A DNA stretch of 64,000 nucleotides. Origin: Clostridia bacterium (GTDB lineage: Bacteria > Bacillota > Clostridia > Oscillospirales > RGIG8002). Below the pieces are notes generated by a model, which saw nothing but the letters and a program-made list of their open reading frames with translations, was not told the origin of the DNA and ran no database searches. How positions within the stretch are numbered: position 1 is the first letter of the stretch; each line of letters starts with the position of its first letter. The DNA lies in the NCBI GenBank assembly GCA_017620395.1, contig JAFZQJ010000034.1:1395-65394 (forward strand), in the 5' to 3' direction. Positions 31,384-55,977 of the stretch are shown piece by piece. The translations under genes and the position numbers were made by a program.

Positions 31384-31953
31384 ATGGAGTGCGGCGTGAA
31401 CGACGAAAGAATAGTCGCATTGTTCTGGAACAGGGACGAAAGCGCGCTTGCCGAAACGGAAAAGCGCTACGGCGACTACTGCCTTTATATCGCCGAAAAC
31501 GTGCTCCGCAACGCGCGCGACGCGGAGGAGTGCGTCAACGACGCGCTGCTCGCCGCCTGGAACTCCATCCCGCCGAACAGACCGGATAACTTCAGAGTCT
31601 ATCTCGGCGCGCTCGTGCGCAACGCCGCGCTCGACGTCTGGCGGCGCGGGAACGCAAAAAAGCGCAAAGCCGCGTCCGTCGCTTCGCTCGAAGAGCTCGG
31701 CGAGCTTGCCTCCGCCTTCGACGTGGAAGACGCCGTCGGCGCCAAAGAGCTCTCGCGCCTGATCTCCGATTACCTGACGACGCTTGACGAAACGGAGCGA
31801 AAAGTCTTCGTCCGCCGCTATTGGTGCTATGAGCCGATCGAGGCGATATGCGCGCGTTACGGCTTCGGCAAAAGCAAGGTCAAAATGATGCTCAAACGCA
31901 CGAGGGACGGCCTCGCCGCGTATCTGAAAAAGGAAGGTCACTATGAATATTGA
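31384..31953 (+). CDS. RNA polymerase sigma factor, sigma-70 family (ECF-like, regions 2 and 4)
   Basis: About 185 aa with ..FWNRDESALAETEKRYG..DAEECVNDALLAAW.. and a C-terminal HTH. GTG 31396 (GGAG 6 nt upstream) may be the real start. Confidence 0.85.
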   Translation: MECGVNDERIVALFWNRDESALAETEKRYGDYCLYIAENVLRNARDAEECVNDALLAAWNSIPPNRPDNFRVYLGALVRNAALDVWRRGNAKKRKAASVASLEELGELASAFDVEDAVGAKELSRLISDYLTTLDETERKVFVRRYWCYEPIEAICARYGFGKSKVKMMLKRTRDGLAAYLKKEGHYEY

Positions 31954-33121
31954 TATATTGAATGAAGCTATCGGAGGGATCGACGCTTACATCGTCGAAG
32001 AGGCGCTCGCCGACGGAGAAAAGAAGCCGAAGGTGACCGCCTTCGCGCAGCGTCCGTGGATGAAATGGGCGGCTGCGGCGGTCGCGATAGTCGTCATCGC
32101 CGCCGGAACGCCGCTCGCGCTGAAAGCGATCGGCTCCTTCCGCAACGAAAACTTCGTCGCCCCGAACGGCAGCGGGAACGGCAACCCCGGCGCGGTTGCT
32201 CCCGTCGACAGCGGCGAGCCGGAAAGCAGCAGCGAGCCGGATAGCAGCTCCGCGCCGGAAAGTGAAAACAACGCCTCGTCTGAACAAAGCGGCGAAAGCC
32301 GCTCCCGCGGCAGCGAGCAGCAAACCCCGCCCGCCTCGGATCCGCCCGAAACGAGCTCGCCCGAGCCAGACTCCTCCTCATTTGATATCGAAGTCGGCTC
32401 CGGCAGCATCGGCGGCCCGCTGAGCATCGGCGGCAGCCATTTCGGCGGCAACTTTCACAAAAAGAATATGCCCGCGGTCACGTATCGGATAAACGGCGAA
32501 TCACAATCCTTCGATTATGACCACTCGGCATGGATAATGATCGACGCGGAATCCGACCTTGACGGCAACGAGGGCGTATATATCATAGATTATTACTCCG
32601 GCAAAGACGGCAGCAGCGCAGTCGCGTATGACGGTTCCGAAGAGCTGATGGAATACACCGGCCGCTATAACGACTACGGCTCCGGCGATGAGATCTCCGA
32701 AGTAGCAGCCACGGAAGCTGCAAAAAACGTGCTGCTTAACACCGATCTCCCGTTCGCTGCGCTCGAAAACCTGCAGATCTCGAAATCGGAATCCGGCAAA
32801 AACTATCACAGGATCGTGGCTTCCTTCACCGGCGGCGAAGTCGAGATTCTTCTCAACAAAGACGGCAGCCTGAAGCACTTCATCGTCAACAGAGACGCCT
32901 CCGTCTGGCTGACGCCGGAGAGGATAGCGGCGGGCAGGGAAAAGCTCGACGCGAAGATTGACGCGTTGAGCGCCGAGCGGCCGAACGAGCGCTTCGTCGC
33001 TACCGGCGTCGAGGTATATCAAAAGCTCGCGAATAAGATATACGCGATCTACGAAGTGATCCAGTATCCGTATCAAGGCTCGGATTTCCAAAAACGGTTA
33101 AGATTCTACTGCGTCGTATAA
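31943..33121 (+). CDS. Putative anti-sigma factor: short cytoplasmic N-terminus, one TM, acidic Ser/Pro-rich linker, about 240-aa ectodomain
   Basis: Overlaps the sigma gene by 11 nt. The N-terminus (..IDAYIVEEA..) and TM helix (WMKWAAAAVAIVVIAAG) are typical of partners of this sigma family. A PepSY-like stretch lies in the ectodomain. Confidence 0.65.
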   Translation: MNIDILNEAIGGIDAYIVEEALADGEKKPKVTAFAQRPWMKWAAAAVAIVVIAAGTPLALKAIGSFRNENFVAPNGSGNGNPGAVAPVDSGEPESSSEPDSSSAPESENNASSEQSGESRSRGSEQQTPPASDPPETSSPEPDSSSFDIEVGSGSIGGPLSIGGSHFGGNFHKKNMPAVTYRINGESQSFDYDHSAWIMIDAESDLDGNEGVYIIDYYSGKDGSSAVAYDGSEELMEYTGRYNDYGSGDEISEVAATEAAKNVLLNTDLPFAALENLQISKSESGKNYHRIVASFTGGEVEILLNKDGSLKHFIVNRDASVWLTPERIAAGREKLDAKIDALSAERPNERFVATGVEVYQKLANKIYAIYEVIQYPYQGSDFQKRLRFYCVV

Positions 33122-33173
33122 CGCCGCTTTTCGGATAACGCTTGACAAATCAGAGGGGGAGGAAATAATAACA

Positions 33174-34220
33174 ATGAAAAACCTCACGAAAAAACTGCTC
33201 GCGGCGCTTCTGACGCTGCTGATGGTCGCTGCACTGATGCCGGTGACGGCTTCGGCGGATCAGAACGCGATCATCATCGTCGAGCTGAACGAGCCGTATT
33301 ACGGTGAAAACCTCAACGAGATACTTCCCGAGATCAAAATGGAGGTGTCGTATCCCTTCATCGACGGCTACGCGTTCGTCGTCTATTACGCCCACACCTC
33401 GGATGAGGACGCCTACGCCGCCGCTGAGGCTTTGGCGACGAACTCTCGCGTCAAGAGCGCGACCTACTGCCCCGGTAACCCGACCGAAAACACCTCCCGC
33501 GTCAGGTTCCATATCACGATCTCGGAGGATTATTTCGGCGAGGATTATTACACGCCGATAACTTCGGTCGAGCTGGGGAAGCTTTTCCCGAACAGGGTTA
33601 TCAAGCGTGCCCGCAAATGGGGTTTCCGCAATTTCGATATTTTCTTCGATATCGGCTCGTCGGAAGACTGGTACGAAATCTATGACGAGTTAAAATCCAA
33701 CCCGTTCATTCTGTCGTTCCACACCTTCGACATGGGCGGTTCCGGCAAAGCCGTTACGATCGGCACTCTCGCGGTGACGACGAAGGCGGAGCATACCGAA
33801 AATGAGATCATCGGCCTGTATGCGGACTTGGGAGCATATGAAGTTGTCGAATCATACTCCGCGCATTATTTCAAGTTCAACATTCGTGACAGATCGCTCA
33901 GAGGAACGCTCGAGGCGGTCAAAGCGCTGAAGAACGATCCCGACGTCGCAAACGTCGTATGGACAGATACGATTGGCTTTCCGACCGTAATGCCGAAGGA
34001 GCTTGAAGAAGCCGACTTCCTTGCGCCGGAACGCCCGGAGGCGACGGTGGAGACCGCCCTCGGCGCGTTAAGGATAGCCGCGAAGCTCGGTGAAGCGAAA
34101 AACGGCGTTTACGATTACAAGCTCGCCGACGCGATCTGGCAGTTCGACTGCGACGGCGACAAGGCGATCACCGTTTCCGACGCGCTTATCCTCCTTCGCA
34201 AAGCCGCGAAGCTTGCGTAA
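33174..34220 (+). CDS. Secreted protein with three tandem ~80-aa repeats and a C-terminal dockerin-like module
   Basis: Has a signal peptide (..PVTASADQ) and ends DCDGDKAITVSDALILLRKAAKLA-stop. The first F-hand is degenerate. Confidence 0.75.
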   Translation: MKNLTKKLLAALLTLLMVAALMPVTASADQNAIIIVELNEPYYGENLNEILPEIKMEVSYPFIDGYAFVVYYAHTSDEDAYAAAEALATNSRVKSATYCPGNPTENTSRVRFHITISEDYFGEDYYTPITSVELGKLFPNRVIKRARKWGFRNFDIFFDIGSSEDWYEIYDELKSNPFILSFHTFDMGGSGKAVTIGTLAVTTKAEHTENEIIGLYADLGAYEVVESYSAHYFKFNIRDRSLRGTLEAVKALKNDPDVANVVWTDTIGFPTVMPKELEEADFLAPERPEATVETALGALRIAAKLGEAKNGVYDYKLADAIWQFDCDGDKAITVSDALILLRKAAKLA

Positions 34221-34287
34221 TACTCCATACCTTAATCCACGGTAATTCAGATTATCAATACCCGATTAACAATAAGGAGGAACTATT

Positions 34288-35886
34288 ATGAAAAAACTTA
34301 CCAAAATCATTTCCGCAATGCTGACGGCGGTAATGCTGTTCAGTCTGTTCGCGGTGCCTGCCGCCGCGTACGCGGACGGCGGCGTCTGCGGCGAAAATCT
34401 CACGTGGACGCTTGAAAACGGCGTCCTCACCATCAGCGGCGCGGGTCCTATGGAGAACTACCTGAAGTACAACGCGCATGACACGTACTCCGTAGAGCGC
34501 CCCGATCTGGACCGCCTTGCGCCGTGGGGAACGGATATCAAAAACGTCATTATCGAGGACGGCGTAACGACTATCGGCGACTTTGCGTTCTATAACTGCA
34601 AGCAGATAGAGAGCATAGAGATCCCCGCGAGCGTCAAGGTCATAGGCAAGAGCGCGTTTGCGGACGCGGTCCTGCAGACGCTCGTACTGCCGGAAGGCGT
34701 TGAAGAAGTGAAAGAATACGCGTTTTTCGACTGTGATCTCAAGAGCAACGATTTCCGTATGCCCGACAGTCTCAGGATAATAGGCGAAAAAGCTTTTCAG
34801 TGCTATATGGGTATGATTGAGATCGGCGAGGGCGTTGTGGATATAGGCAAGGAAGCTTTCGGCAACAACGTGGTAATGAATATCCCTGAGAGCGTACAGC
34901 ATATCGGCAAAGACGCGTTCAAGATAACTTCTTTCTACAAAGACGAGAGCAACTGGAGAATGGACGCGCTCTATATCGGCAAGTGGCTGATAAAGGTCAA
35001 GGAGAATACCAAACTCGAGTTCTTCGTCGTCAAACGCGGCACGGAGCACATCGCGGATTATGCTTTTGAAAATTGCAAGTCGCTGAAAGACGACATAATA
35101 CTTCCGAAGAGCTTGAAGTCCATAGGAAGAAGCGCGTTCCAGGCCTGCAACAATCTCGAAGCGCTCGACATACCGGAAGGAGTGACGGATATCGGCCCCG
35201 GCGCGTTTTCCGGCTGCAAGGGCCTGACCGAGCTCAAACTTCCTGAGTCGATAACCGAGATAGGCGATCAAATGTTATCCGGCTTGAGCTTTGAGCAATT
35301 CGAGATTTCGGATAACGTGGAACGTATAGGCGAAGGCGCTTTCCTGAGTTGTATGCAGCTTAAATCGATCACGATCCCGTCAGGCGTGAAAAGAATAGAG
35401 CCGTGGACGTTTATGAGCTGCACGTCGCTCGAGGAAGTGAACCTCCCCGAAGGCCTTGAAAGCATCGGCGATTTCGCTTTCCTGGCCTGTGCCTCTCTGC
35501 GCAGGATCGTTATTCCCAGAAGCGTGACGAGCATCGGCATCGGTCTTTTCTATTTCAACGTGCCGACGCCCACGGATATAGTTATGGCGGTATACGAGGG
35601 CTCGTATGCGCAGACCTACGCCGAAGAAAACGGCATAGCTTATGAGATAATCGGCGAAGAAAAACCGATAGACGAGAATAACGGGGAACTTGTCGGCGAT
35701 ATGGACGGCGACGGTGAGATCACCGTTTCCGACGCGCTACGCGCGCTGCGTATCGCCGCGAAGCTTGAGGCCCCCGTTGCGGCGAAGGGCACGAGAAGCG
35801 CGCTCCTCGGCGACGTTGACGGCGACGGAGCCGTTACGGTCGCGGACGCACTTGCGATCCTCCGCAAAGCCGCGAAGCTTGCGTAA
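34288..35886 (+). CDS. Secreted BspA-type leucine-rich-repeat protein with C-terminal dockerin
   Basis: Has a signal peptide and repeated ..IP.SV..IG..AF..C..L motifs (LRR_5-like). Two F-hand segments, GDMDGDGEITVSDALRALRIAAKL and GDVDGDGAVTVADALAILRKAAKLA-stop, span nt 35695-35883. Confidence 0.85.
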   Translation: MKKLTKIISAMLTAVMLFSLFAVPAAAYADGGVCGENLTWTLENGVLTISGAGPMENYLKYNAHDTYSVERPDLDRLAPWGTDIKNVIIEDGVTTIGDFAFYNCKQIESIEIPASVKVIGKSAFADAVLQTLVLPEGVEEVKEYAFFDCDLKSNDFRMPDSLRIIGEKAFQCYMGMIEIGEGVVDIGKEAFGNNVVMNIPESVQHIGKDAFKITSFYKDESNWRMDALYIGKWLIKVKENTKLEFFVVKRGTEHIADYAFENCKSLKDDIILPKSLKSIGRSAFQACNNLEALDIPEGVTDIGPGAFSGCKGLTELKLPESITEIGDQMLSGLSFEQFEISDNVERIGEGAFLSCMQLKSITIPSGVKRIEPWTFMSCTSLEEVNLPEGLESIGDFAFLACASLRRIVIPRSVTSIGIGLFYFNVPTPTDIVMAVYEGSYAQTYAEENGIAYEIIGEEKPIDENNGELVGDMDGDGEITVSDALRALRIAAKLEAPVAAKGTRSALLGDVDGDGAVTVADALAILRKAAKLA

Positions 35887-35934
35887 CAATCCATATGTTT
35901 GAATTGAACAGGGAGGGGCAAAGGAGGAGTTACA

Positions 35935-36768
35935 ATGAAAAGAGTTGGCAAAACTATTGCGCTATTTTTGGTGTTGGCCATTTTAGCAGGGGCGGTATCT
36001 TTCGTAAGTTTTGCGCAGAAGGACTCAGACGATGTGTATTATCCTGATGATTATCCGTGGCTTACGCTCGGGGAAGTATCAAAAACCGCAACTGACGTTA
36101 TTCGTCTTCGTGTCGGTGAAACGTGTGAAATAGCAATAATAAACCTTGAAGCCGGCATAATGGATTTCGGTGGGACGACTTTAGCGCAGTATTGGCTTGG
36201 AGAAAAAACAGACGGAAACAGGATCAATATGTTTACTCTATGGAGAGTGAAGGATTCTTCTATTATCGATTTTACAGAAGAATACAAATCGGCGCATCCG
36301 TCGGAATATGAAACCCTTCCTATGCTGGAGCAAGATGCGCGATATCTCGAGCGATATGATATGTGTGCTGGCTTTATACCATATCTCAAGTACGCCTTTA
36401 CGGAATCGGATATAGATGAATCTGGTTATGAATATGGCGATATTGAGAATGGTAACTGGGGACAGCGCAGAGCCGTTATAGTCGGCAAAAAAGCAGGAAC
36501 AACGACTATTGAAGTTGCGAAAGGCGGATGGGGAATAACATGTCCGGCAAGAGGGACGCTTACGGTGATTTGCTATGATGAAACTGTTGGCGACGTTGAC
36601 GGCGATGGGGAAGTCACTGTAGCAGACGCGCTTTCCGTGTTGCGCGTAGCAGCGAAGCTTGCGCCGCAGACGAAGAGCACCGGTTCAGTTTTCGATTTCG
36701 ACGGCGACGGAGCCGTCACAGTCGCGGACGCGCTTGCGATACTGCGCGTCGCCGCGAAGCTTGCGTAA
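35935..36768 (+). CDS. Secreted protein (AT-rich body, Ig-like patches) with C-terminal dockerin
   Basis: Has a signal peptide. The dockerin spans nt 36589-36765 (GDVDGDGEVTVADALSVLRVAAKLA .. FDFDGDGAVTVADALAILRVAAKLA-stop). Confidence 0.75.
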   Translation: MKRVGKTIALFLVLAILAGAVSFVSFAQKDSDDVYYPDDYPWLTLGEVSKTATDVIRLRVGETCEIAIINLEAGIMDFGGTTLAQYWLGEKTDGNRINMFTLWRVKDSSIIDFTEEYKSAHPSEYETLPMLEQDARYLERYDMCAGFIPYLKYAFTESDIDESGYEYGDIENGNWGQRRAVIVGKKAGTTTIEVAKGGWGITCPARGTLTVICYDETVGDVDGDGEVTVADALSVLRVAAKLAPQTKSTGSVFDFDGDGAVTVADALAILRVAAKLA

Positions 36769-36857: not shown

Positions 36858-37562
36858 TCACGCGTTGACTCTTCCGCGCCTCTCGCGGTACTGCTTCGGG
36901 GTCACGCCGACGGCCTTGTGAAACACCTTCGTGAAATAGCTCTGGTCGTCGAAGCCGCACGCGCCCGCGATATCCACTATGCGAACGGTATTGTCGAGCA
37001 GCAGCTGTTTGCTTCGCTCGATCCGCACCTCGCGCACGTAGTCGGTCAAACTCATGCCGATCTCCTCCTTAAAGACGGTGGAGATATACGACCGCGAGAG
37101 GAAGACCTTTTTCGCCACGTCGTCCAGCGATATTTTTTTCGCGTAGTTGGCGTTGACGTATTCCGTTATTTTATAAACGGCGGTCGAGTGCCTTATCCGC
37201 GGCAGGTCGAAGGAGTAGTCGATGAACCTGTGCAGCACCCCCGTGACCCACTCGTTCATATCCTCGAAGGAGGTGAAGCGGTCTATGTCGCCGAGATACT
37301 TCGTGTTCAGCGCCATGACCTCGCGCATGTCCGCGCCGGAGTCTATGACCGCGCGGGAGAGCACGACCACCAGCTCTATCATCCGCGCCCTTATCTCCGC
37401 GAGGTCGAAGTCGTTGGAAAAGTATATGTGTCCGATCAGCTCGTTCAGCGCGTTCTGCGCGCCGAGCTTGTCGTGAGTGAGTATCATCGAGCGCAGCGCC
37501 TTTTCCTTTTCGATGGGGTAGTCGACGGCGTATCCGCCGCCGGCGTGCGGAGCTTCACGCAT
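36858..37562 (-). CDS. AraC-family transcriptional regulator
   Basis: 234 aa starting at ATG 37562 (GAGGAGG SD). Has a C-terminal double HTH (..LDDVAKKVFLSRSYISTVFK.., ..IAGACGFDDQSYFTKVFHK..). The track's 80-codon N-terminal extension is rejected. Confidence 0.85.
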   Translation of the reverse strand: MREAPHAGGGYAVDYPIEKEKALRSMILTHDKLGAQNALNELIGHIYFSNDFDLAEIRARMIELVVVLSRAVIDSGADMREVMALNTKYLGDIDRFTSFEDMNEWVTGVLHRFIDYSFDLPRIRHSTAVYKITEYVNANYAKKISLDDVAKKVFLSRSYISTVFKEEIGMSLTDYVREVRIERSKQLLLDNTVRIVDIAGACGFDDQSYFTKVFHKAVGVTPKQYRERRGRVNA

Positions 37563-37743
37563 TTTTCCGCCTCCTCTCGTGATTTTTGTAATTATATCAG
37601 ATTTTTTGGAAAATTTCAAGGTGCGGGAGGTAAAAAGGCGTTCGTCGGATATTTCATATAATATGATATATTTATGTTGCAAACGGCCGCGGCGTATGTT
37701 ATAATCGGCTTGTATAATCGCCGTTGCGGCGTGGAGGAACGCT

Positions 37744-40062
37744 ATGGAAAAATCACTGAGAATAAAAATAATATCGCTGCTTGCCGCGCTGACGCTGCTC
37801 ATAGCGGCTGTGTGCGTGCCGTCCGCGGGCGCGGAGCGCTATGAAGCTCCCGCGGCCGTGAAAGAAACGGCGTCCGGACATCCTGAACGAAGCGAAGGAT
37901 CCCCCGGATATTCCGACCTTTTGCGTGAGGAAGGGGATTCCTCGCCCGTCGGGCTCGGAATGACAGACCTCGCCCCGACCGAAGACAGCGCTTTCATAGG
38001 CGAGGCGACCGTGCCCGTGTTTGAAACGGCGGTGCGCGGCGAATCCGACGTCTCGGGCGCGACGCCGTGGCAGTATAACTACACCGACGAAAGCTGGACG
38101 GCTTACGAAGCCGCGCTCGCCTCCGCGCAGACCGCGGATGAACGCGCCGCCGCGTTCGACCTGCTTGCGCCTCGCAACACCGAGGCCGTCACCGCCGGCT
38201 TTTTCAGCGGCTGGAACACATCCGACGTCAACGCCGTCGTAACCGCGAACAGCGGCCGCCTCTGCGACTCCATCGGCGACAGTCTGAACACCAACGGCGT
38301 ATGGAACAACGGCGATTTCTCCCGCAACACGGTCTTTGATGCGGGCGACGGCTGGTTCTCCATGACCGCGGCTGCCGACTTCGCGGGCAAGGCGATGGGC
38401 TGGAAGAATATGGACCGCAGCGCGACGCTGAATCCCAACAAGCAGAGCGCCGGCGCGGCGTACCCCGAGATGGACGTCTCCGGCCTTTCCTACGCCGAGG
38501 GCATACGCTTCAAGCTTGAGGTCTACGGTCCCGAATACGCCGTGCTCGGAACCGACGCCGTCGAGCGCATACTGATCGGTCTTTCCAACTGCGACACCAT
38601 GGTGCGCGAACAGTACGCGCTGAACGTCAAACCCTCGCAGGTCGGCTCCGACGGATATATCAACATCCCGTTCAGCTGCTTTGTCAACGCGTGGTGGTGC
38701 CGCGCTTTCTCGCAGTCCGAGCTCGAGGACGTCATCGTCTTCATAATCGAAGCCTACGGCGAAGCCGAGGGCACGACCGTGAAGGTTTCAGACCTGCACG
38801 GTTATATAACCGTCGCTCCCGTTATCCCGCCGGAGCCGCGCGAGCCGGGCTTCGCGGAGCCGAGGGCGAGCGAATACGTCGGTTCGACCTTCCGCGCCAC
38901 CGACTTCCGCATTATAAAATTCGACGAGATGTTCCCCGAGGGCTTCGCCGGCGACACGAGCTGGGATCCGATGGGCATCGACGATAACGGCATAATATAC
39001 TTCGGCTACACCGGACGCCGTACCGACCTGATCCCCGACGAGGTGATAGAGGATTTCGCCGTCTTCTCGTATGATCCGGAGACTGACGTCGTCAAGTTCC
39101 TCGGCACCCTCATTGAGGCGAGCAAGGCGTGCGGCAACTACGTTTACGGCGAGGAAATCCCGAAGGGACACACGAAGTTCTACTGTATTGATAACAAGAT
39201 GTATCTTGCGAGCCAGAGCTTCCACGACTACAAGGACAAGATCGACGGCGCGGACGGCTATATGACCAAGCGCGGCGCCCATCTGTATATGTACGACATC
39301 GAGAAGGAAGCGCTCATCGACCTTTCCGCGTCCTTCCCGGGCGGCGTATGGTGCGAGCACCAGGGAGTCGTCGCGCTGAACTATATGCCGGAACTCGGCA
39401 AGCTCGTCGGCTTCACGCATCCGCTTGCGGACCTCGTCTTCTACGATCTCGCGACCGGCACGGTAGACCGTTACGTCAACGGCATCCCGTGGTCGCTCGG
39501 CAATCCGCTGAGCCGCGAGATAATCGTCAGCGGCGACAGAGTGTATCTCTACCGCGGCGTTGAGGATCCCGGGCAGCGCGCCGAGATCCAGTGGCCGGTC
39601 TACTGCTATGACTACGGCGAAAACCGCCTCTATCAGACGGGAGACACGATGAAGGGCGGCTTCTGGAACGGTCAGGCGACGACCTCGGACGGCAAAACGA
39701 CCTACATCAGCGGCTGCTGCGGATACCTTTACAAGATGGATATGGAGACCGGCAGAGTGACCTTCCTGCGCGATATGGACCTCGACGGCGAGAACGTCAT
39801 CGGTTATACCTATTCGATATCGATGTCGCCGGACGAAACGAAGCTGTTCTATATCCCGACGGCGCGAAAGCCCGGCCGCATTTACGAATACGATATCGCG
39901 ACGAACACACTCGCAGTTGTCGCGGACGTTCAGCAGAGCGTCTACTGCGGCAGCAATATCGTGACGAAGGATAACTGGTACTACTTCACCCGCTTCGGCG
40001 AGAACGGCACGTGGGAGGGCGCTCCGAGCGTCGTCGCCTACAAGCTCGAGCCGTGGGAATGA
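37744..40062 (+). CDS. Secreted 772-aa protein: signal peptide, repeat-derived linker, CBM-like middle region, beta-propeller-like C-terminal half
   Basis: Signal peptide ends ..SAGA. The C-terminal half has recurrent hydrophobic-Y/F-x-D/G blade-like strings (IIYFGYTG, KMYLASQ, HLYMYDIE, LVFYDLATG, RVYLYRG, VYCYDYG, YLYKMDMETG, RIYEYDIATN, NWYYFTRF). Confidence 0.7.
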   Translation: MEKSLRIKIISLLAALTLLIAAVCVPSAGAERYEAPAAVKETASGHPERSEGSPGYSDLLREEGDSSPVGLGMTDLAPTEDSAFIGEATVPVFETAVRGESDVSGATPWQYNYTDESWTAYEAALASAQTADERAAAFDLLAPRNTEAVTAGFFSGWNTSDVNAVVTANSGRLCDSIGDSLNTNGVWNNGDFSRNTVFDAGDGWFSMTAAADFAGKAMGWKNMDRSATLNPNKQSAGAAYPEMDVSGLSYAEGIRFKLEVYGPEYAVLGTDAVERILIGLSNCDTMVREQYALNVKPSQVGSDGYINIPFSCFVNAWWCRAFSQSELEDVIVFIIEAYGEAEGTTVKVSDLHGYITVAPVIPPEPREPGFAEPRASEYVGSTFRATDFRIIKFDEMFPEGFAGDTSWDPMGIDDNGIIYFGYTGRRTDLIPDEVIEDFAVFSYDPETDVVKFLGTLIEASKACGNYVYGEEIPKGHTKFYCIDNKMYLASQSFHDYKDKIDGADGYMTKRGAHLYMYDIEKEALIDLSASFPGGVWCEHQGVVALNYMPELGKLVGFTHPLADLVFYDLATGTVDRYVNGIPWSLGNPLSREIIVSGDRVYLYRGVEDPGQRAEIQWPVYCYDYGENRLYQTGDTMKGGFWNGQATTSDGKTTYISGCCGYLYKMDMETGRVTFLRDMDLDGENVIGYTYSISMSPDETKLFYIPTARKPGRIYEYDIATNTLAVVADVQQSVYCGSNIVTKDNWYYFTRFGENGTWEGAPSVVAYKLEPWE
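37878..37964. repeat. Inverted pair of REP-like units embedded in-frame (87 nt) in the 37744-40062 CDS
   Basis: acatcctgaacgaagcgaaggatccccc ... ggggattcctcgcccgtcgggctcggaatgac. Same family as 31078-31211. Confidence 0.75.
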
Positions 40063-42414: not shown

Positions 42415-42543
42415 AAACGGTTTTCATACGCCGCTTCGTCCTCGCGACGGGGCGGCGTTCGTTTATCTGTTATGAAATATGTTACCACTGTTCGCGCAGG
42501 TTGTCAAGGTGCGTGTTTTTTGCTAAAAGGCGCAAAAATACTG

Positions 42544-42572
42544 TTTACAAAAGTTGTTATATATGGTAGAAT
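42544..42572 (+). promoter_or_regulatory. Putative sigma-A promoter of the V-ATPase operon
   Basis: TTTACA-17 nt-TAGAAT about 60 nt upstream of ATG 42632. Confidence 0.5.
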
Positions 42573-50374: not shown

Positions 50375-51016
50375 ATGGCGAAGCTGATAAATCCCACGCG
50401 GATGGAGCTGAACAAGTACAAAAGGCGTGTCAAGACCGCTGTCAGGGGGCATAAGCTCCTGAAAGACAAGCAGGACGAAATGGCGCGTCAGTTCATGCTG
50501 CACATAAAGCGGAATATGGAGCTTCGCCGCAAGGTCGAGGAAAAACTCGCGAAGGTCATGGCGGAGTCCTCCTCCGCGGCGGCCCGCATGGGCAGCAGCG
50601 CGGTGCGCGAGGCGCTGCTCGTGCCGGCGCGTTCAGCGAAGGTGTCGCTGACCGTCAAGAACATAATGAGCGTCAACGTCCCGTCCCTCCGCTACGAGGG
50701 CGGCGACGAGGAAACGCAGCTGCCTTACGGCTTCGCGTTCTCCTCCGGCGCGCTGGACGGCGCGGTCATGACGCTCGCGGACCTGCTTCCGGACCTCATC
50801 GAGCTTGCGGGCGTGGAAAAGACCTGCGATATGCTCGCCGAGGAGATGGAGAAGACCCGCCGCCGCGTCAACGCGCTCGAGTTCGTCATGATCCCCGAAA
50901 TGAACGAAGCCATCAAGTATATCTCCATGAAGCTCGAAGACAACGAGCGCAGCAACATCACCCGCCTGATGAAGATCAAAGACCAGAAGCTCAAAAAAGA
51001 ATCGGCAGGGAAATAA
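50375..51016 (+). CDS. ntpD: V-type ATP synthase subunit D
   Basis: 213 aa starting ..NPTRMELNKYKRRVKTAVRGHKLLKDK.. Confidence 0.92.
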   Translation: MAKLINPTRMELNKYKRRVKTAVRGHKLLKDKQDEMARQFMLHIKRNMELRRKVEEKLAKVMAESSSAAARMGSSAVREALLVPARSAKVSLTVKNIMSVNVPSLRYEGGDEETQLPYGFAFSSGALDGAVMTLADLLPDLIELAGVEKTCDMLAEEMEKTRRRVNALEFVMIPEMNEAIKYISMKLEDNERSNITRLMKIKDQKLKKESAGK

Positions 51017-51032
51017 GGAGAGAAGAGATAGA

Positions 51033-53180
51033 GTGAAAAGAATAACTGCAATCATAATGTGCGTTGTATTTTTGATGTCGGTCGGTGTCTTGAATGTGAG
51101 CGCATCATATATTGATGAGCGTTGGCAATGGTCAAATGACGTTCAACAGGAACGTTGTACATATCGTGTTTGGCATGAGGCGTACGAAAGACTTGGTATA
51201 AGCTTACCGGACACGTGGGGGAATGCTGCTACTTGGTATGATAATGCGCCATATGACGGATATCCAGTTGATAATAACCCATCTGCAAATTCTATTGCTT
51301 GCTGGGATGATGGGGGTTGGGGACATGTCGCATATGTAACAAGCGTTGATTCGGAGTGGGTTTATTATAGACATGCGGGGTTTGACCCCAGTGATAGGTA
51401 TACTGGCTATTGGTACAATGACGATAAAAGAAGAATAGACAATATGGGATGGGATTTCGAGGGATATATTCACCTCACCTCTTTAGATCTCGGCTCTGAT
51501 TTCTACGCGTTCATAATCAAGCAGGATTCGTGGAAGCACCTTGCGGCCGAAAACGGCAATGTTCAGTTACCGTCGACCGGAAATAACAGCTCCGATCCAA
51601 AGCAGATATGGCACTTTATCAGGATGTCTGACGGCTCTTACAAAATCGTCAACGAGTTTTACGATATGTGTATGGATGCGGCGAATTTCGGCACAAGCAA
51701 CGGTACCAACGTCGGATTGTGTACGAGCAACGATTCTACCGCGCAAAGATGGTTCATTTCAACTATGGGCAACGGATACGCGCTTTCGCCGGCATATACG
51801 AGTATGGTTATAGACGTCACCGGCGGCGTGAACGATCCCGGTACCAATGTGCAGCTTTGGCAGTCCGGAAACACGTCGGCTCAGGCTTTTTCGATATACA
51901 AACTCACGGAGGACGGCGTTACCTATTCCAAGCCCGCGAAGCCGTCCGCGGTGACGGTGAACGCTTCGGTTTCCGCCAATAAGGTTTTGAGTATCTCGTG
52001 GAGTCAGTCGCCTCTGAAGGGATCGTTTGACGCGCGCGCATACGACGTTTATATCTATAAAGACAGCGCGAGCAGCACGCCGATCCATACAAAAATGAGT
52101 TTGAGCGCCACTTCATATACATACAGCCTCCCTTCTGAAGGAACGTATTACGTTAAGGTTGCCGCCGTCAACACGAAGTATTACGGTTGGTATACGTTCT
52201 CCTCGACGGTAAAGGTGGAAACGAAGAGCGACTTGCTAGGAGATATGGACGGCGACGCTTCTATAACCGTTTCGGACGCGCTCGCCGCGCTGAGGATTGC
52301 CGCAAGGCTTGCGAGCGCCACGAGCAGCGTGAAGAAGATAGCCGACGTGGATTTCGACGGAACGATAACGGTTTCCGACGCGCTTGCGATACTGCGCGTC
52401 GCCGCGAGGCTTGCCGGTACGAAGACGCTCACCGTACAGTCGCTGAGCAGCTGTACGCTGTATCCCGAATGCTATAAGAACTATGCCGTTTCTTCCAACT
52501 ATACGGACGCCCGCGTCGAGTGGTTGAGCAGCGACGCGTCCGTCGCAACCGTCGGCAGCAACGGCAAGGTAACGGCTAAAAGCGCCGGAACGGCGACGAT
52601 AACCGCAAAGGTTTCCGTTATCGGTCAGCAGAAATCCGTTTCGTATACCGTCACGGTCAAGAACCCGAGCGTTGTTTTGGCGCCTGCTTCTCAGAGCACG
52701 TCTTATGACGCGTATTCTAACAACAGAGTCATTATCAGCGGTCATATCGCTTACAAGTGCCCGCTTCCTTCCGTGACGACGGACGTCAACGAGGCATATT
52801 GCGGCGACAGCCGCGTGAGCACTTCAAGTATTACAAAGGAGATAACGTCCGGTGATGGTAAGTTCAGCGGCGAATACTTCTATTCGTATCAGCCCGGCAC
52901 GATAAAGATCAAGTATTCATTCTCCGTCGCCGGCAAGACTTACAGCAGCACTTATACCTGCAACCTCACGCTGACGCGCACCAATCCGGATATGGGGCAG
53001 TATATAAGAAGCTCGACTTCGACGTCTTCGACGAATCTGGGTATGGTACCCGCGAATACGACTTATGTGATAACGCAGGTCGCGGTCACCGGAACGGTAG
53101 GAGAGTCGGGATGCCAGGTCTGGGGATACACGACCTATGGCGGCGTATCCGGATGGACTTTGATCGAGTATTGGCAGTAA
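51033..53180 (+). CDS. Secreted multidomain cell-wall hydrolase: CHAP + ricin-type lectin + Fn3-like + internal dockerin + Big_2-like + SH3-like C-terminus
   Basis: GTG start after an AAGGAGAG SD, then a signal peptide. CHAP Cys/His context (..ERCTYRVW.., GNAATWYD, GWGHVAYVTSV). QxW-type lectin repeats (KQIWHF, AQRWFI, VQLWQS). Dockerin at nt 52239-52418. Big_2 string (SSDASVATVGSNGKVTAKSAGTATITA). Confidence 0.8.
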   Translation: MKRITAIIMCVVFLMSVGVLNVSASYIDERWQWSNDVQQERCTYRVWHEAYERLGISLPDTWGNAATWYDNAPYDGYPVDNNPSANSIACWDDGGWGHVAYVTSVDSEWVYYRHAGFDPSDRYTGYWYNDDKRRIDNMGWDFEGYIHLTSLDLGSDFYAFIIKQDSWKHLAAENGNVQLPSTGNNSSDPKQIWHFIRMSDGSYKIVNEFYDMCMDAANFGTSNGTNVGLCTSNDSTAQRWFISTMGNGYALSPAYTSMVIDVTGGVNDPGTNVQLWQSGNTSAQAFSIYKLTEDGVTYSKPAKPSAVTVNASVSANKVLSISWSQSPLKGSFDARAYDVYIYKDSASSTPIHTKMSLSATSYTYSLPSEGTYYVKVAAVNTKYYGWYTFSSTVKVETKSDLLGDMDGDASITVSDALAALRIAARLASATSSVKKIADVDFDGTITVSDALAILRVAARLAGTKTLTVQSLSSCTLYPECYKNYAVSSNYTDARVEWLSSDASVATVGSNGKVTAKSAGTATITAKVSVIGQQKSVSYTVTVKNPSVVLAPASQSTSYDAYSNNRVIISGHIAYKCPLPSVTTDVNEAYCGDSRVSTSSITKEITSGDGKFSGEYFYSYQPGTIKIKYSFSVAGKTYSSTYTCNLTLTRTNPDMGQYIRSSTSTSSTNLGMVPANTTYVITQVAVTGTVGESGCQVWGYTTYGGVSGWTLIEYWQ

Positions 53181-53203
53181 GTGATACCGAATAGTTTAAC
53201 AAC

Positions 53204-53231
53204 AAACGCCTCCCGAGCGGGAGGCGTTTTT
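53204..53231. terminator. Bidirectional rho-independent terminator (shared by the CHAP gene and dinB)
   Basis: AAACGCCTCCCG-agc-GGGAGGCGTTTTT. The dinB stop codon lies in the T-tract. Confidence 0.85.
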
Positions 53232-54477
53232 ATATATCGAGATGCGTTTCTATGTGCCGCAGGGGATCGGCGAAGGCGGGCGGGATATACTCGCTCTTCT
53301 TGCGCAGCAGCAGCGAAGCCGGCGTTATCGCGCCCTTGCCGAAGCGGCTGCGGACGCCGTCCGCGGCGCGCTCGAGCGTCTCGGCGCGTTCGTGCCGTCG
53401 GAAGCCGCCGCCGAAGTCGAGCTGCGCGGGGAACTTCTCGTCGCAGAGGTTTATCGCCGTCAGCGTCACCGCGCGTACGGGGCAGCGCCAGTCGTACCGC
53501 TCGCGGAAGAGGCGGAAGCCCGCCTCCGCGAGTTCGCAGGCGCAGGAGGTCGGGTAGCGCGTCGCGGTTTGGTACTGCTCAAAGGCGAGCATGCTGTCCC
53601 GCACGCGCACGGAAACTCCGCGCGCCGCGAGCCCGTTCTGCCGCAGCCGCCTGCCGACGTCCTGCGCCAGATGCAGCAGCATAAGCCGGACCTCCGCGTT
53701 ATCCTTCATATCCGCCGGCGGCGTCTGCCCGTGCCCGACGCTCTTTATCGGGCTGACGTACCCGATCGGCATGACGGGGGAGAGGTCGAGTCCGTTGGCG
53801 TACTGCCAGAGCGTCAGCCCCGCCTTGCCGAAGGCGCGCTGAAGGAAGTCGGGGTTCGTCCGCGCGAGGTCGCCTATCGTGTGGATGCAGTAGCGTTCGA
53901 GCTGCGCGCGGCTGCTGCGCCCGACGCCGAACAGATCCGCCGCGGGAAGCGGCCATATCTTTTCGCGGAAGTCGCGCCCGATCTCCGTCGTCGCGTCAGG
54001 CTTCTTCATATCCGAGCCGAGCTTCGCGAAGATCTTGTTGAAGCTGACGCCGACGGAGATGGTCAGCCCGACCTCCTCGCGCATACGCCGCCGCAGCTCG
54101 TCCGCGATGGCGCGTCCGTCGCCGAAAAGCAGTCTGCTCGCGCTGACGTCGAGCCAGCATTCGTCCATGCCGAAGGGCTCGACGAGGTCGGTGTATTCGG
54201 CGTAAAGCTCCCGCGCCGCGCGCGAGAAGCGCGCGTATTCGCCGTAGTGAGGCGAAACGATGACGAGCTGCGGGCATTTCTTCTGCGCCTGCCATATCGC
54301 CTCCGCCGTCGCCACGCCGAAGCGCTTTGCCTCCTCCGATTTTGCCAACACGATCCCGTGGCGGTCCTCCTTCGAGCCGCAGACGGCGATCGGCAGCCCT
54401 TTCAGCGACGGGTCGAGCACCGCCTCGATAGAGGCGAAGCAGTTGTTTATGTCGCAGTGCAGTATCGTCCTGTCCAC
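53230..54477 (-). CDS. dinB: Y-family DNA polymerase IV
   Basis: GTG 54477 lies after an AAGGAGGG SD. The N-terminus ..ILHCDINNCFASIE.. is the Y-family catalytic motif, and the protein is 415 aa. The track's longer ORF is rejected. Confidence 0.9.
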   Translation of the reverse strand: MDRTILHCDINNCFASIEAVLDPSLKGLPIAVCGSKEDRHGIVLAKSEEAKRFGVATAEAIWQAQKKCPQLVIVSPHYGEYARFSRAARELYAEYTDLVEPFGMDECWLDVSASRLLFGDGRAIADELRRRMREEVGLTISVGVSFNKIFAKLGSDMKKPDATTEIGRDFREKIWPLPAADLFGVGRSSRAQLERYCIHTIGDLARTNPDFLQRAFGKAGLTLWQYANGLDLSPVMPIGYVSPIKSVGHGQTPPADMKDNAEVRLMLLHLAQDVGRRLRQNGLAARGVSVRVRDSMLAFEQYQTATRYPTSCACELAEAGFRLFRERYDWRCPVRAVTLTAINLCDEKFPAQLDFGGGFRRHERAETLERAADGVRSRFGKGAITPASLLLRKKSEYIPPAFADPLRHIETHLDI

Positions 54478-54597
54478 GCGCAGCCCTCCTTTCCGCGAAA
54501 ACGCGTCCGCTTTCCGCCGCCGCTTCCGCAAAAACGGCGTCAGCAAACAAGCCTTCGCCGTCTGTCCGGAAATTCGTGAAGTTTTTTCAAAAACCCC

Positions 54598-54626
54598 TTG
54601 ACAAATGGTGAAAGTCATTGTAATAT
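54598..54626 (+). promoter_or_regulatory. Putative promoter P(xre): TTGACA-17-TAATAT, with a GTGAAAG site inside the spacer
   Basis: Read directly from the sequence. It points toward xre/immA. Confidence 0.5.
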
Positions 54627-54629
54627 AAT

Positions 54630-54647
54630 GGTGAAACTTGTTTCACC
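54630..54647. promoter_or_regulatory. Perfect palindrome GGTGAAAC-tt-GTTTCACC (candidate operator)
   Basis: 8-bp arms located between the two predicted -10 elements. Confidence 0.6.
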
Positions 54648-54664
54648 AACGCTCTGTACCTATT

Positions 54665-54693
54665 ATTTTAGGTGAAACTAAGTTCATTGTCAA
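54665..54693 (-). promoter_or_regulatory. Putative promoter P(dinB): minus strand TTGACA-17-TAAAAT, whose spacer is the GGTGAAACTAAGTTCAT site
   Basis: Read directly from the sequence. It points toward dinB. Confidence 0.5.
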
Positions 54694-54703
54694 GTGAAAG
54701 ATG

Positions 54704-54719
54704 ATGAAATTACTTTCAT
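54704..54719. promoter_or_regulatory. Palindrome ATGAAA-ttac-TTTCAT (candidate operator)
   Basis: 6-bp arms, preceded by AGTGAAAG at 54694. Confidence 0.45.
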
Positions 54720-54753
54720 ATTTTTGCCGTTTTTATACGGGGGAGGAAACGAA

Positions 54754-55146
54754 ATGCTTTTCGGAGAGAAACTCAGGGAGCTGCGCAAAAAGGAAGGGCT
54801 GACGCAGGAGGCGCTCGCCGCCGAGATCGACGTTACCAAGCGCACGCTCATCAACTACGAGAGCGGCCGCTGCTACCCGAAGCAGGCGGAGATTGTCATG
54901 CGTCTTGCGAAGCGCTTTTCCGTCAGCGCGGACTATCTCATGAGCGAGGCAGACGAGTTCGTCGCGCAGGCGCACGCCCGCGGCGGCGCGCGCGGCATGG
55001 CGCAGGCGAAGGAGCTTGTCGCGGAGGTCAGCGGACTTTTCGCGGGCGGGGAGCTCGCGGACGAGGACAAGGACGCTGTCCTGCGCGCGATAATCGACGC
55101 CTACTGGGACGCGAAAAACGATAACAGGAAATACGCGAGGTCGTGA
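54754..55146 (+). CDS. XRE-family HTH transcriptional regulator
   Basis: ATG 54754 follows a GGGGGAGG SD. The HTH_3 signature is ..GEKLRELRKKEGLTQEALAAEIDVTKRTLINYESG.. (130 aa). Confidence 0.88.
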   Translation: MLFGEKLRELRKKEGLTQEALAAEIDVTKRTLINYESGRCYPKQAEIVMRLAKRFSVSADYLMSEADEFVAQAHARGGARGMAQAKELVAEVSGLFAGGELADEDKDAVLRAIIDAYWDAKNDNRKYARS

Positions 55147-55152
55147 TCCACA

Positions 55153-55650
55153 ATGAGCTATATCGAGTTGGAAGCGGAGGCGCTTGCGGCGAAATACGGC
55201 ACGCGCGATCCCTTCGAGATAGCGCGTCAGGAGGGGATAGCGGTCTATTTCCGCAATGACTTCACCAAGCTCAAGGGTATGTATAAAGTTATCCTTCGCC
55301 GCCGCTGCGTCTTCATCAACGCCGGACTGCCGCAGGAGGAGATGCGCTATATCTGCGCGCACGAGCTGGGGCACGACAAGCTCCACCGCGCCGCGACCGC
55401 GAAAGCGGGACTCTGCGACTTCGTGATGTTCGACGTGAAAAACAAGCTGGAGTACGAGGCGAATCTTTTCGCCGCGCACCTGCTCATAGACGACCGGCAG
55501 GTCTCCCACGCCGCCGTGAACGGCATGACGGCGCAGGAACTGGCGGCCGCGCTCGGCGTACCCGAAACGCTCGTCACGATAAAGGCGGCGAACTACGAGA
55601 AACGCCGTCAGCATCACGCGCCGCGCGAGCTGAAAAATCCGCTGTATTGA
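55153..55650 (+). CDS. ImmA/IrrE-family (COG2856) zinc metallopeptidase
   Basis: 165 aa with an HEXXH motif (CAHELGHDKLH) and a downstream ..EYEANLFAAHLL.. It starts 6 nt after the xre stop. Confidence 0.85.
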   Translation: MSYIELEAEALAAKYGTRDPFEIARQEGIAVYFRNDFTKLKGMYKVILRRRCVFINAGLPQEEMRYICAHELGHDKLHRAATAKAGLCDFVMFDVKNKLEYEANLFAAHLLIDDRQVSHAAVNGMTAQELAAALGVPETLVTIKAANYEKRRQHHAPRELKNPLY

Positions 55651-55677
55651 CGGCGTTATTGTGAGGAGCGCAGTCTT

Positions 55678-55922
55678 TCTTGGCTCCCTCTGAGGAGGGA
55701 GCTGTCGAGGGCGGCGGTAAGCCGTCCGAGACTGAGGGAGAGATAACGTCGATTTGCGATTTGCCGGGAGTCTGTTCCGAAGACGGCGAATTATCTTATG
55801 TGTACTTATCCCTCATCTCCGTCGCGGCGCTTATACATAAGGAGGGCTGTCGTTATCTCTCCCTCCGTCTTGCCTCGGCTTAAGCCTCGGCAATCCACCT
55901 CCCTCCTCAGAGGGAGGCAAGA
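55678..55922. mobile_element. MITE-like element: ~70-bp imperfect terminal inverted repeats flanking a ~100-bp core, no ORF
   Basis: The left arm (55678-55748) aligns with the reverse complement of the right arm (55851-55922). Identical blocks are ctccctctgaggagggag and gagggagagataacg. Confidence 0.65.
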
Positions 55923-55945
55923 ACATACTTCTGAACTCTACACTC

Positions 55946-55977
55946 AAAAACGGAAGGAACGCGTTCCTTCCGTTTTT
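55946..55977. terminator. Bidirectional rho-independent terminator
   Basis: AAAAACGGAAGGAACGCGTTCCTTCCGTTTTT. Confidence 0.85.

Follow-up and report, generated by a model that had tools for sequence, protein, structure and literature searches.

A predicted CHAP-headed wall hydrolase with an internal dockerin behind a V-type ATPase operon of a Clostridia bacterium

Dockerins bind cohesins in a calcium-dependent manner, CHAP domains cut the stem peptides or the MurNAc-L-Ala bond of peptidoglycan, and SH3b domains bind peptidoglycan. All three kinds of domain are predicted in one protein of an uncultured Clostridia bacterium, probably of a gut or rumen type (assembly GCA_017620395.1, contig JAFZQJ010000034.1), of which a stretch of 64,000 nucleotides (nt), hereafter the window, was analysed; its gene lies at positions 51033–53180 of the window, behind ntpD, the last gene of an operon for a V-type ATPase. 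It has been reported that about half of the dockerin proteins of Ruminococcus flavefaciens are not carbohydrate-active, among them leucine-rich-repeat (LRR) proteins, peptidases and serpins (PMC3573020, PMC5301203), and that dockerins bind in internal as well as in terminal position (PMC5301203); the premise of the first-pass annotation of this locus, that dockerins normally tether glycoside hydrolases, is outdated for ruminococcal-type bacteria (PMC3573020, PMC5301203). Among the described wall-active examples, RflaF_05439 of R. flavefaciens FD-1 has two NlpC/P60 modules and an X-dockerin and binds the wall-anchored ScaE cohesin (PMC3573020); dockerin-borne GH25 lysozymes are reported for the cellulosome of R. 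champanellensis (Morais et al. 2016, via PMC6403190, PMC13463774); a survey of the bovine rumen reported lysozyme-like and D-Ala-D-Ala peptidase modules linked to dockerins and suggested that they serve in competition among microbes (PMC6487960); and a 2019 review gave this idea the name "lyticome" (PMC6403190). Publications of 2013–2019 already contain both wall hydrolases that bear dockerins and the proposal that such enzymes attack competitors. A full-text literature search for a dockerin together with a CHAP domain returned no description of a CHAP–dockerin protein, and this combination and the particular architecture found here appear undescribed; unnamed public examples are P0117, with CHAP, ricin and dockerin domains, and P0139, with a phage-type lysozyme, SH3_3 and a dockerin.

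Like the R. champanellensis lysozymes and the rumen survey genes, for which a role in competition was proposed, the present protein is predicted to be secreted, peptidoglycan-degrading and dockerin-bearing and comes from Ruminococcus-type Clostridia; unlike them, it has a CHAP head (cysteine peptidase/amidase) and not a muramidase, its dockerin is internal, it has extra ricin, Fn3, Big_2 and SH3b modules, and no scaffoldin, cohesin or carbohydrate-active enzyme with its dockerin was seen in the window. Similarly, RflaF_05439 combines a papain-like Cys-His-polar head of the CHAP/NlpC-P60 superfamily with a dockerin, it has been shown to be held on the cell surface by a cohesin, and one relative of our protein, P0003, has an NlpC/P60 head on a body of the same type; RflaF_05439 differs in that it has no detectable sequence relationship, no lectin or SH3b and a C-terminal dockerin with an X module, and no activity was found for it. 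PcsB-type CHAP proteins (PDB 4cgk) and clostridial SH3_3 lysins (4krt) have in common with our protein the CHAP core with aligned Cys and His, the SH3b fold and domain shuffling, but these autolysins and endolysins have no dockerin or ricin lectin, and the third catalytic residue is His in our protein and not Glu. As for the dockerin itself, the closest solved natural one is that of Amy16 (9qf9) in the amylosome of R. bromii, also an Oscillospiraceae-type gut bacterium with non-cellulosomal dockerins; the parent proteins there are amylases, and their cohesin partners are known.

The overall best explanation, to which we give an even chance, is a Sec-secreted, cassette-built wall hydrolase with a targeting dockerin. 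New at this locus are three more secreted proteins in the window with the same dockerin subtype, a compositional mosaic within the gene and an in-place swap of the catalytic head at the ntpD locus; otherwise the protein is what domain shuffling among Gram-positive wall hydrolases ordinarily produces.

The predicted secreted protein of 715 amino acids (aa) consists of eight parts: a signal peptide, CHAP, ricin, Fn3, dockerin and Big_2 domains, a domain called Y, and SH3b (Table 1). The first-pass annotation had described a secreted 715-aa protein with CHAP-type Cys/His contexts, three QxW-type lectin repeats, an Fn3-like segment, an internal two-segment dockerin, a Big_2-like string and an SH3b-like end, and each of these is borne out. 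The hidden Markov model searches proposed there were run, and four families score above their Pfam gathering cut-offs: CHAP (PF05257, residues 37–111, 43.7 bits against 26), RicinB_lectin_2 (PF14200, 76.3 bits; likewise Ricin_B_lectin, PF00652, 35 bits), Dockerin_1 (PF00404, residues 402–453, 26.2 bits against 22.9) and Big_2 (PF02368, residues 488–534, 31.2 bits against 22.8), whereas Pfam fn3 gives no match in the protein at E up to 10 and SH3_3, with 15.7 bits, stays below its cut-off of 27. In the lectin, the threefold QxW appears as QIW at 191, QRW at 238 and QLW at 274. The Ig-like family PF26918 (Ig_Eae) has a precomputed match on the relatives P0002 and P0003 and adds nothing beyond Big_2. 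An LPSTG at residues 178–182 was considered as a sortase signal and rejected, since its position is within the lectin, P0002 does not conserve it and no membrane anchor follows.

The two domains that Pfam leaves without a match above cut-off were approached by profile. For Fn3, about 30 relatives conserve a stretch of roughly 110 residues that follows the lectin; profile A2, with 18 homologous segments, has PDB matches to Fn3 domains alone (titin, NCAM2, neogenin, contactin), the AlphaFold2 model of the segment has a predicted local distance difference test score (pLDDT) of 91.4, and its top Foldseek matches are Fn3 domains with template modelling (TM) scores of 0.6–0.7. Judged by profile and predicted fold, the Fn3 assignment is correct despite the missing Pfam match; the relative P0006 does have an fn3 match, but in another region. 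The C-terminal 177 residues are nearly orphan: a word-indexed search gave one fragment, and an exhaustive HMMER search of 1.84 billion representatives gave 27 remote relatives, which nearly always match at the extreme C-terminus of secreted proteins and several of which reach the SH3_3 threshold at the aligned position. Residues 650–714 match the SH3_3 repeats of P0133 and P0139 (E 1e-6 to 1e-8), and profile A4 matches SH3b domains of clostridial and Bacillus wall hydrolases in the PDB (4krt, 2kq8, 2kyb, 2kt8); judged by these matches, the SH3b assignment is correct despite the sub-threshold Pfam score. The profile of domain Y found no match in the PDB, and the structure model of residues 539–715 is unusable, with a pLDDT of 39 and only four near-identical sequences behind it. 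Y and SH3b together suggest a portable wall-anchoring cassette without a family name. The same unit recurs on unrelated surface proteins (P0122–P0148), for instance S8 subtilases with Listeria-Bacteroides repeats, a PASTA-repeat protein and the ectodomain of a Ser/Thr kinase.

Table 1. Positions in the window of the gene, its parts and nearby features, with the identity of two relatives, P0002 and P0003, to each part of the protein.
Feature	Residues	Position	Strand	Basis or remark	P0002 identity (%)	P0003 identity (%)
Complete gene		51033..53180	+	715 aa; same sequence in contigs L001–L004		
Signal peptide, MKRITAIIMCVVFLMSVGVLNVSA	1–24	51033..51104	+	charged start, hydrophobic core, VSA end as in all relatives	33	50
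CHAP cysteine peptidase/amidase (head)	25–145	51105..51467	+	Pfam 43.7 bits; PDB 2k3a, PcsB	36 (different CHAP)	26 (NlpC/P60)
Ricin-type beta-trefoil lectin, CBM13-like	146–291	51468..51905	+	PF14200, PF00652, three QxW	82	48
Fn3	292–400	51906..52232	+	profile A2, AlphaFold2 model, Foldseek	76	51
Internal two-segment dockerin	401–462	52233..52418	+	PF00404; PDB 2ccl_B, 1ohz_B	81	63
Big_2 Ig-like domain	463–538	52419..52646	+	PF02368 31.2 bits; intimin matches in PDB	67	64
All-beta domain Y	539–650	52647..52982	+	kept with SH3b as C-terminal unit in rare relatives	88	80
SH3b wall-binding domain (predicted)	651–715	52983..53177	+	SH3_3 repeats of P0133/P0139; profile A4	97	85
Swapped cassette: spacer, signal peptide, CHAP, linker		51018..51485	+	no DNA similarity to L028		
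ntpD, V-type ATPase subunit D, last operon gene		50375..51016	+	PF01813 on identical L001 gene		
16-nt spacer GGAGAGAAGAGATAGA with GGAG ribosome-binding motif		51017..51032	+	sequence		
Promoter-like site before V-ATPase operon		42544..42572	+	TTTACA-17-TAGAAT with TG, 10/12 matches		
Terminator hairpin, common with convergent dinB		53204..53229	+	11 pairs, 7 G-C, then TTTTAT		
Three secreted proteins with the same dockerin subtype: 348, 532 (LRR_5) and 277 aa		33174..36768	+	motif scan, open reading frames, alignment		

The open reading frame begins with GTG and ends with TAA, and from ntpD through the terminator (50375–53260) no base differs among four independent metagenome contigs, which rules out an assembly artefact. 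The public starts for this protein (P0001) disagree, giving 578, 694 or 715 aa: the ENA gene calls begin at ATG 51444 and leave 578 aa without the CHAP domain, while NCBI MBO4935061.1 begins at GTG 51096, leaves 694 aa without the signal peptide and is named "RICIN domain-containing protein", with no mention of CHAP or dockerin. The start chosen in the first-pass annotation was accepted because the 715-aa N-terminus alone resembles those of all relatives (MKR, a hydrophobic core, and VSA followed by S), a GGAG motif stands upstream of it, and the downstream domains are all of extracellular types; on this comparison the 715-aa reading is better than either public gene call. The signal peptide was judged by eye, with cleavage expected after VSA. 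Surveys that rely on public annotation would overlook enzymes of this class, because the start is truncated and both CHAP and dockerin are missing from the name. Inside the gene, a promoter-like site at 51391–51419 (GTGATA-17-TACAAT with TG) lies just upstream of ATG 51444 and is probably due to chance; if it were used, the product would lack the signal peptide and the CHAP domain.

In the CHAP head, C42 aligns with the catalytic Cys57 of the solved CHAP protein 2k3a, H98 lies within GHVAYV, and both are invariant among the relatives (alignment A1). The third catalytic position is occupied by H114, by Glu in five relatives and by Gln in the closest relative, P0027; since His is among the third residues accepted in the superfamily (Gln, Asn, His, Glu, Asp; PMC3573020), the predicted active site looks competent. 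The nearest solved CHAP domains are those of PcsB and of secreted staphylococcal CHAP proteins, and the best partial matches in NCBIfam are PcsB and ScrM.

The dockerin had been placed at nt 52239–52418, which in frame correspond to residues 403–462 and hold two near-identical segments, DMDGDASITVSDALAALRIAARLA and DVDFDGTITVSDALAILRVAARLA. Their calcium-loop segments, DMDGDASITVSD and DVDFDGTITVSD, are each followed by a helix ALAxLRxAARLA; both loops have Asp at positions 1, 3, 5 and 12, and position 6 of loop 1 is Ala and not the usual Gly. The PDB matches of the domain are 2ccl_B and 1ohz_B (the Xyn10B dockerin); with a profile of the dockerin subtype, the closest solved natural dockerin is Amy16 (E 2e-7), followed by those of C. 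thermocellum Xyn10B and R. flavefaciens ScaH. A scan of all six frames placed the motif GDxDGDGxxTVxDALxxLRxAAKLA at the C-terminal end of three further secreted proteins in the window. The first dockerin segment of the 348-aa protein is degenerate, the 532-aa protein is a BspA-type leucine-rich-repeat protein, and the 277-aa protein has no assigned function; Dockerin_1 is above its cut-off in the latter two (25.6 and 33.3 bits), and none of the three is a glycoside hydrolase or a recognised enzyme. We infer that the dockerin is a working targeting module, of a subtype also present on no fewer than three further secreted proteins of the window that are not carbohydrate-active, and that it probably docks the enzyme onto a surface protein with a cohesin, the gene of which lies elsewhere in the genome.

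The three proteins close a forward-strand cluster at 31384–36768, which begins with an ECF-like sigma factor (Sigma70_r2/r4; ECF, extracytoplasmic function) and a membrane protein of 392 aa that crosses the membrane once, has no known domain and by its position resembles an anti-sigma factor; this layout recalls the sigma/anti-sigma control of cellulosome genes. The G+C content at third codon positions (GC3) of the 277-aa dockerin gene is only 0.44. Other non-enzymatic dockerin proteins are encoded on contigs of relatives (L026, 11694–14298, and L027, 877–2520, the latter from the same sample as L001); one of more than 1544 aa has Dockerin_1, LRR_5 and Flg_new and adjoins transposase and resolvase genes, and another has a CAP domain and a faint dockerin match.

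The composition of the gene is mosaic. As first noted, it is AT-richer than its neighbours, with a G+C content of 0.51 against 0.62 in the V-ATPase operon and 0.65 in dinB; by GC3, the CHAP head stands at 0.34, the other domains at 0.62–0.71 and host core genes at about 0.8. The adjacency of ntpD and the gene recurs in a second, diverged lineage, on contig L028, which encodes P0002. There, the last 166 nt of ntpD are 91.6% identical to the window and the body of the gene plus the terminator 81%; the similarity ends right after the terminator, where the downstream neighbour differs. Between these matching flanks, 51018–51485 is the sole part without DNA similarity to L028, and so the cassette of signal peptide and CHAP was, by this alignment, replaced in place at the same locus. 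The NlpC/P60-headed P0003 lies on contig L029, at a locus other than ntpD. Since L028 (with another CHAP) and L029 differ in this way, the catalytic heads are seen to be swapped as cassettes on a conserved tail, and the head and the lectin diverge faster than the tail (Table 1).

More distant relatives keep the ricin–Fn3 pair after a CHAP, NlpC/P60 or M23 head and have tails of SLH repeats, Listeria-Bacteroides repeats, Cys-rich repeats with Fn3 or a C-terminal dockerin; the pairings of head and tail include M23 with SLH, CHAP with Flg_new and CHAP with a C-terminal dockerin. Their genes are scattered among unrelated genes, sometimes near transposase genes or other dockerin proteins. Meanwhile, the CHAP heads closest to this one (60–68% identity) sit on proteins with unrelated bodies. 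These comparisons place the protein in a small family of predicted wall hydrolases of Oscillospiraceae type whose modules are exchanged as cassettes. Two metagenome scans yielded no further alleles with the same tail and only ricin–Fn3 relatives of 42–53% identity, no flanking repeats, tRNA or Rfam family were found around the gene as signs of a mobile element, and PADLOC gave no defence-system match for the protein.

The first-pass annotation had also placed the gene 17 nt after ntpD with no terminator in between. The stop codon of ntpD (TAA) is at 51014–51016 and the spacer measures 16 nt, the start being the 17th base after the stop; no terminator or promoter-like site is present in the spacer 51017–51032, and thus neither of the signals that might isolate the gene from the operon was found there. 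The site at 42544–42572 is the only good promoter candidate on the + strand upstream of the gene; a 13-pair terminator (42428–42458) lies just upstream of it, and no comparable + strand terminator occurs between it and the hairpin at 53204. This hairpin sits directly between the stop codons of the gene and dinB. It had been taken for a bidirectional terminator; it scored as a terminator on the + strand only, because the T-run on the dinB side is weak. The layout fits one predicted transcription unit of ~10.6 kilobases (kb) made up of the V-ATPase operon and the CHAP–dockerin gene, which is probably transcribed as its last gene. The family is not tied to the ATPase operon, because the P0003 gene sits at another locus behind its own near-consensus promoter (11/12 matches with TG). 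A scan of reference genomes for NtpD gave nearest relatives of 50–56% identity in uncultured Oscillospiraceae and Clostridia, including metagenome-assembled genomes from goat gut, and among these neither the gene nor dinB lies within 10 kb of ntpD.

What the enzyme would do can be read in several ways. In the reading we prefer, tentatively and at slightly less than an even chance, it is a surface-tethered lytic enzyme with a variable head and lectin: the conserved tail would hold it on the producer, the dockerin on a cohesin protein and the SH3b on the wall; the fast-changing head and lectin would engage a variable substrate; and the tethered enzyme would attack the walls of bacteria nearby, to compete with them or to scavenge peptidoglycan. 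We lean to action on other bacteria because the head and the lectin vary fast while the tail stays conserved, a pattern in keeping with a target that varies and a partner for anchoring that does not; moreover, no anchor other than the dockerin and SH3b tail is seen in the protein. Several points weigh against it. The coupling to a housekeeping operon and the C-terminal SH3b would equally suit an autolysin; the closest CHAP structures, PcsB and the staphylococcal secreted proteins, belong to self-directed enzymes of division and autolysis; the third catalytic residue is His and not the usual Glu, albeit within the accepted range of the superfamily; no cohesin was found in the 64-kb window, either with Pfam or by sequence search against solved structures; and in R. 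flavefaciens most LRR-protein dockerins did not bind any cohesin that they were tested against (PMC5301203). As an idea, the weapon proposed for this locus, an enzyme that lyses competitors from a scaffold of cohesins, is already in print (PMC6487960, PMC6403190), and display on a scaffold is here something that we infer, since no cohesin was found in the window. A narrower version, namely a dockerin-displayed "lyticome" weapon with swapped heads and lectin, made constitutively through the V-ATPase operon in a Clostridia lineage without sign of cellulosomal enzymes, is unlikely. Should the dockerin indeed bind a cohesin on the surface and the enzyme lyse other bacteria, this would be a clean natural case of cohesin–dockerin display for antagonism and not for fibre digestion, and the three heads on one tail would be natural variants for tests of specificity.

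The strongest competitor of action on neighbours is a self-directed autolysin, held on its own wall by SH3b and a cohesin partner, which would remodel or split peptidoglycan and be made constitutively with the V-ATPase operon; we regard it as nearly as likely as action on neighbours, though less likely than not. The nearest solved CHAP domains and the NCBIfam partial matches to PcsB and ScrM agree with it, SH3b is, by the PDB matches, a typical wall anchor of clostridial autolysins, no immunity gene stands beside the gene, and two lineages keep the gene as the last one behind a housekeeping operon. Set against this are the different CHAP head at the same locus and the NlpC/P60 head on the P0003 body elsewhere, which is of a different family within the same papain-like superfamily; the foreign composition of the head, with its GC3 of 0.34; the lectin, which diverges fast too, with 48% identity to P0003; and the lack of linkage to division or wall-synthesis genes, the relatives lying among unrelated genes.

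Both of these readings need a partner for the dockerin. It could instead be an orphan calcium-binding module without a cohesin partner, the protein being released or held by SH3b alone with no scaffold display, which we consider decidedly unlikely. It agrees with this that no cohesin was detected in 64 kb and that segment 1 has Ala in place of the usual loop Gly; in addition, a dockerin is no guarantee of a partner, because most dockerins that LRR proteins bear in R. flavefaciens failed to bind any cohesin among those tested (PMC5301203). Nevertheless, four different secreted proteins of the window keep one and the same subtype, the dockerins of P0002 and P0003 are 63–81% identical to this one, and both loops keep D1, D3, D5 and D12 next to two near-identical helices. 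The cohesin search, which took in the unannotated secreted proteins of 772, 392 and 348 aa, covered about 2–3% of a genome, and no scaffoldin was seen in the 64-kb window; ruminococcal cohesins are reported to be diverged beyond sequence detection and often missed by it (PMC13463774), so that their absence from 64 kb says little. A database search with the dockerin returned short fragments only and was uninformative on partners. The 772-aa secreted protein (37744–40062, +) has no Pfam or PDB sequence match and is negative, by sequence only, as a carrier of a divergent cohesin; its gene adjoins a divergent AraC-family regulator (36858–37802, −).

That the gene codes for an endolysin of a phage, or is what is left of a prophage lysis module, is extremely improbable. 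Endolysins commonly combine CHAP with SH3b, an XRE/ImmA pair is encoded 1.5 kb downstream and the head has a foreign base composition, but against this stand the signal peptide and the multi-adhesin architecture of 715 aa, genes for a holin, an integrase, a tRNA or phage structural proteins are absent nearby (the neighbours being V-ATPase and dinB), no flanking repeats were found, and 50,697 phage records gave one weak match (36% identity over CHAP) and IMG/VR none.

Beyond the terminator, the region 53230–55650 holds dinB (DNA polymerase IV, − strand), divergent from a pair of genes for an XRE-HTH protein (54694–55146) and an ImmA metallopeptidase (55153–55650), whose best PADLOC matches are CapH and CapP; the pair may be a DNA-damage-responsive switch that controls dinB. 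In the following intergenic region, 55677–55977, nested inverted repeats of 28 nt at 93% complementarity enclose one of 20 nt at 95% and are followed by a terminator with a perfect 16+16 palindrome; the repeats, which have no Rfam match, may represent a structured RNA or a small repeat element.

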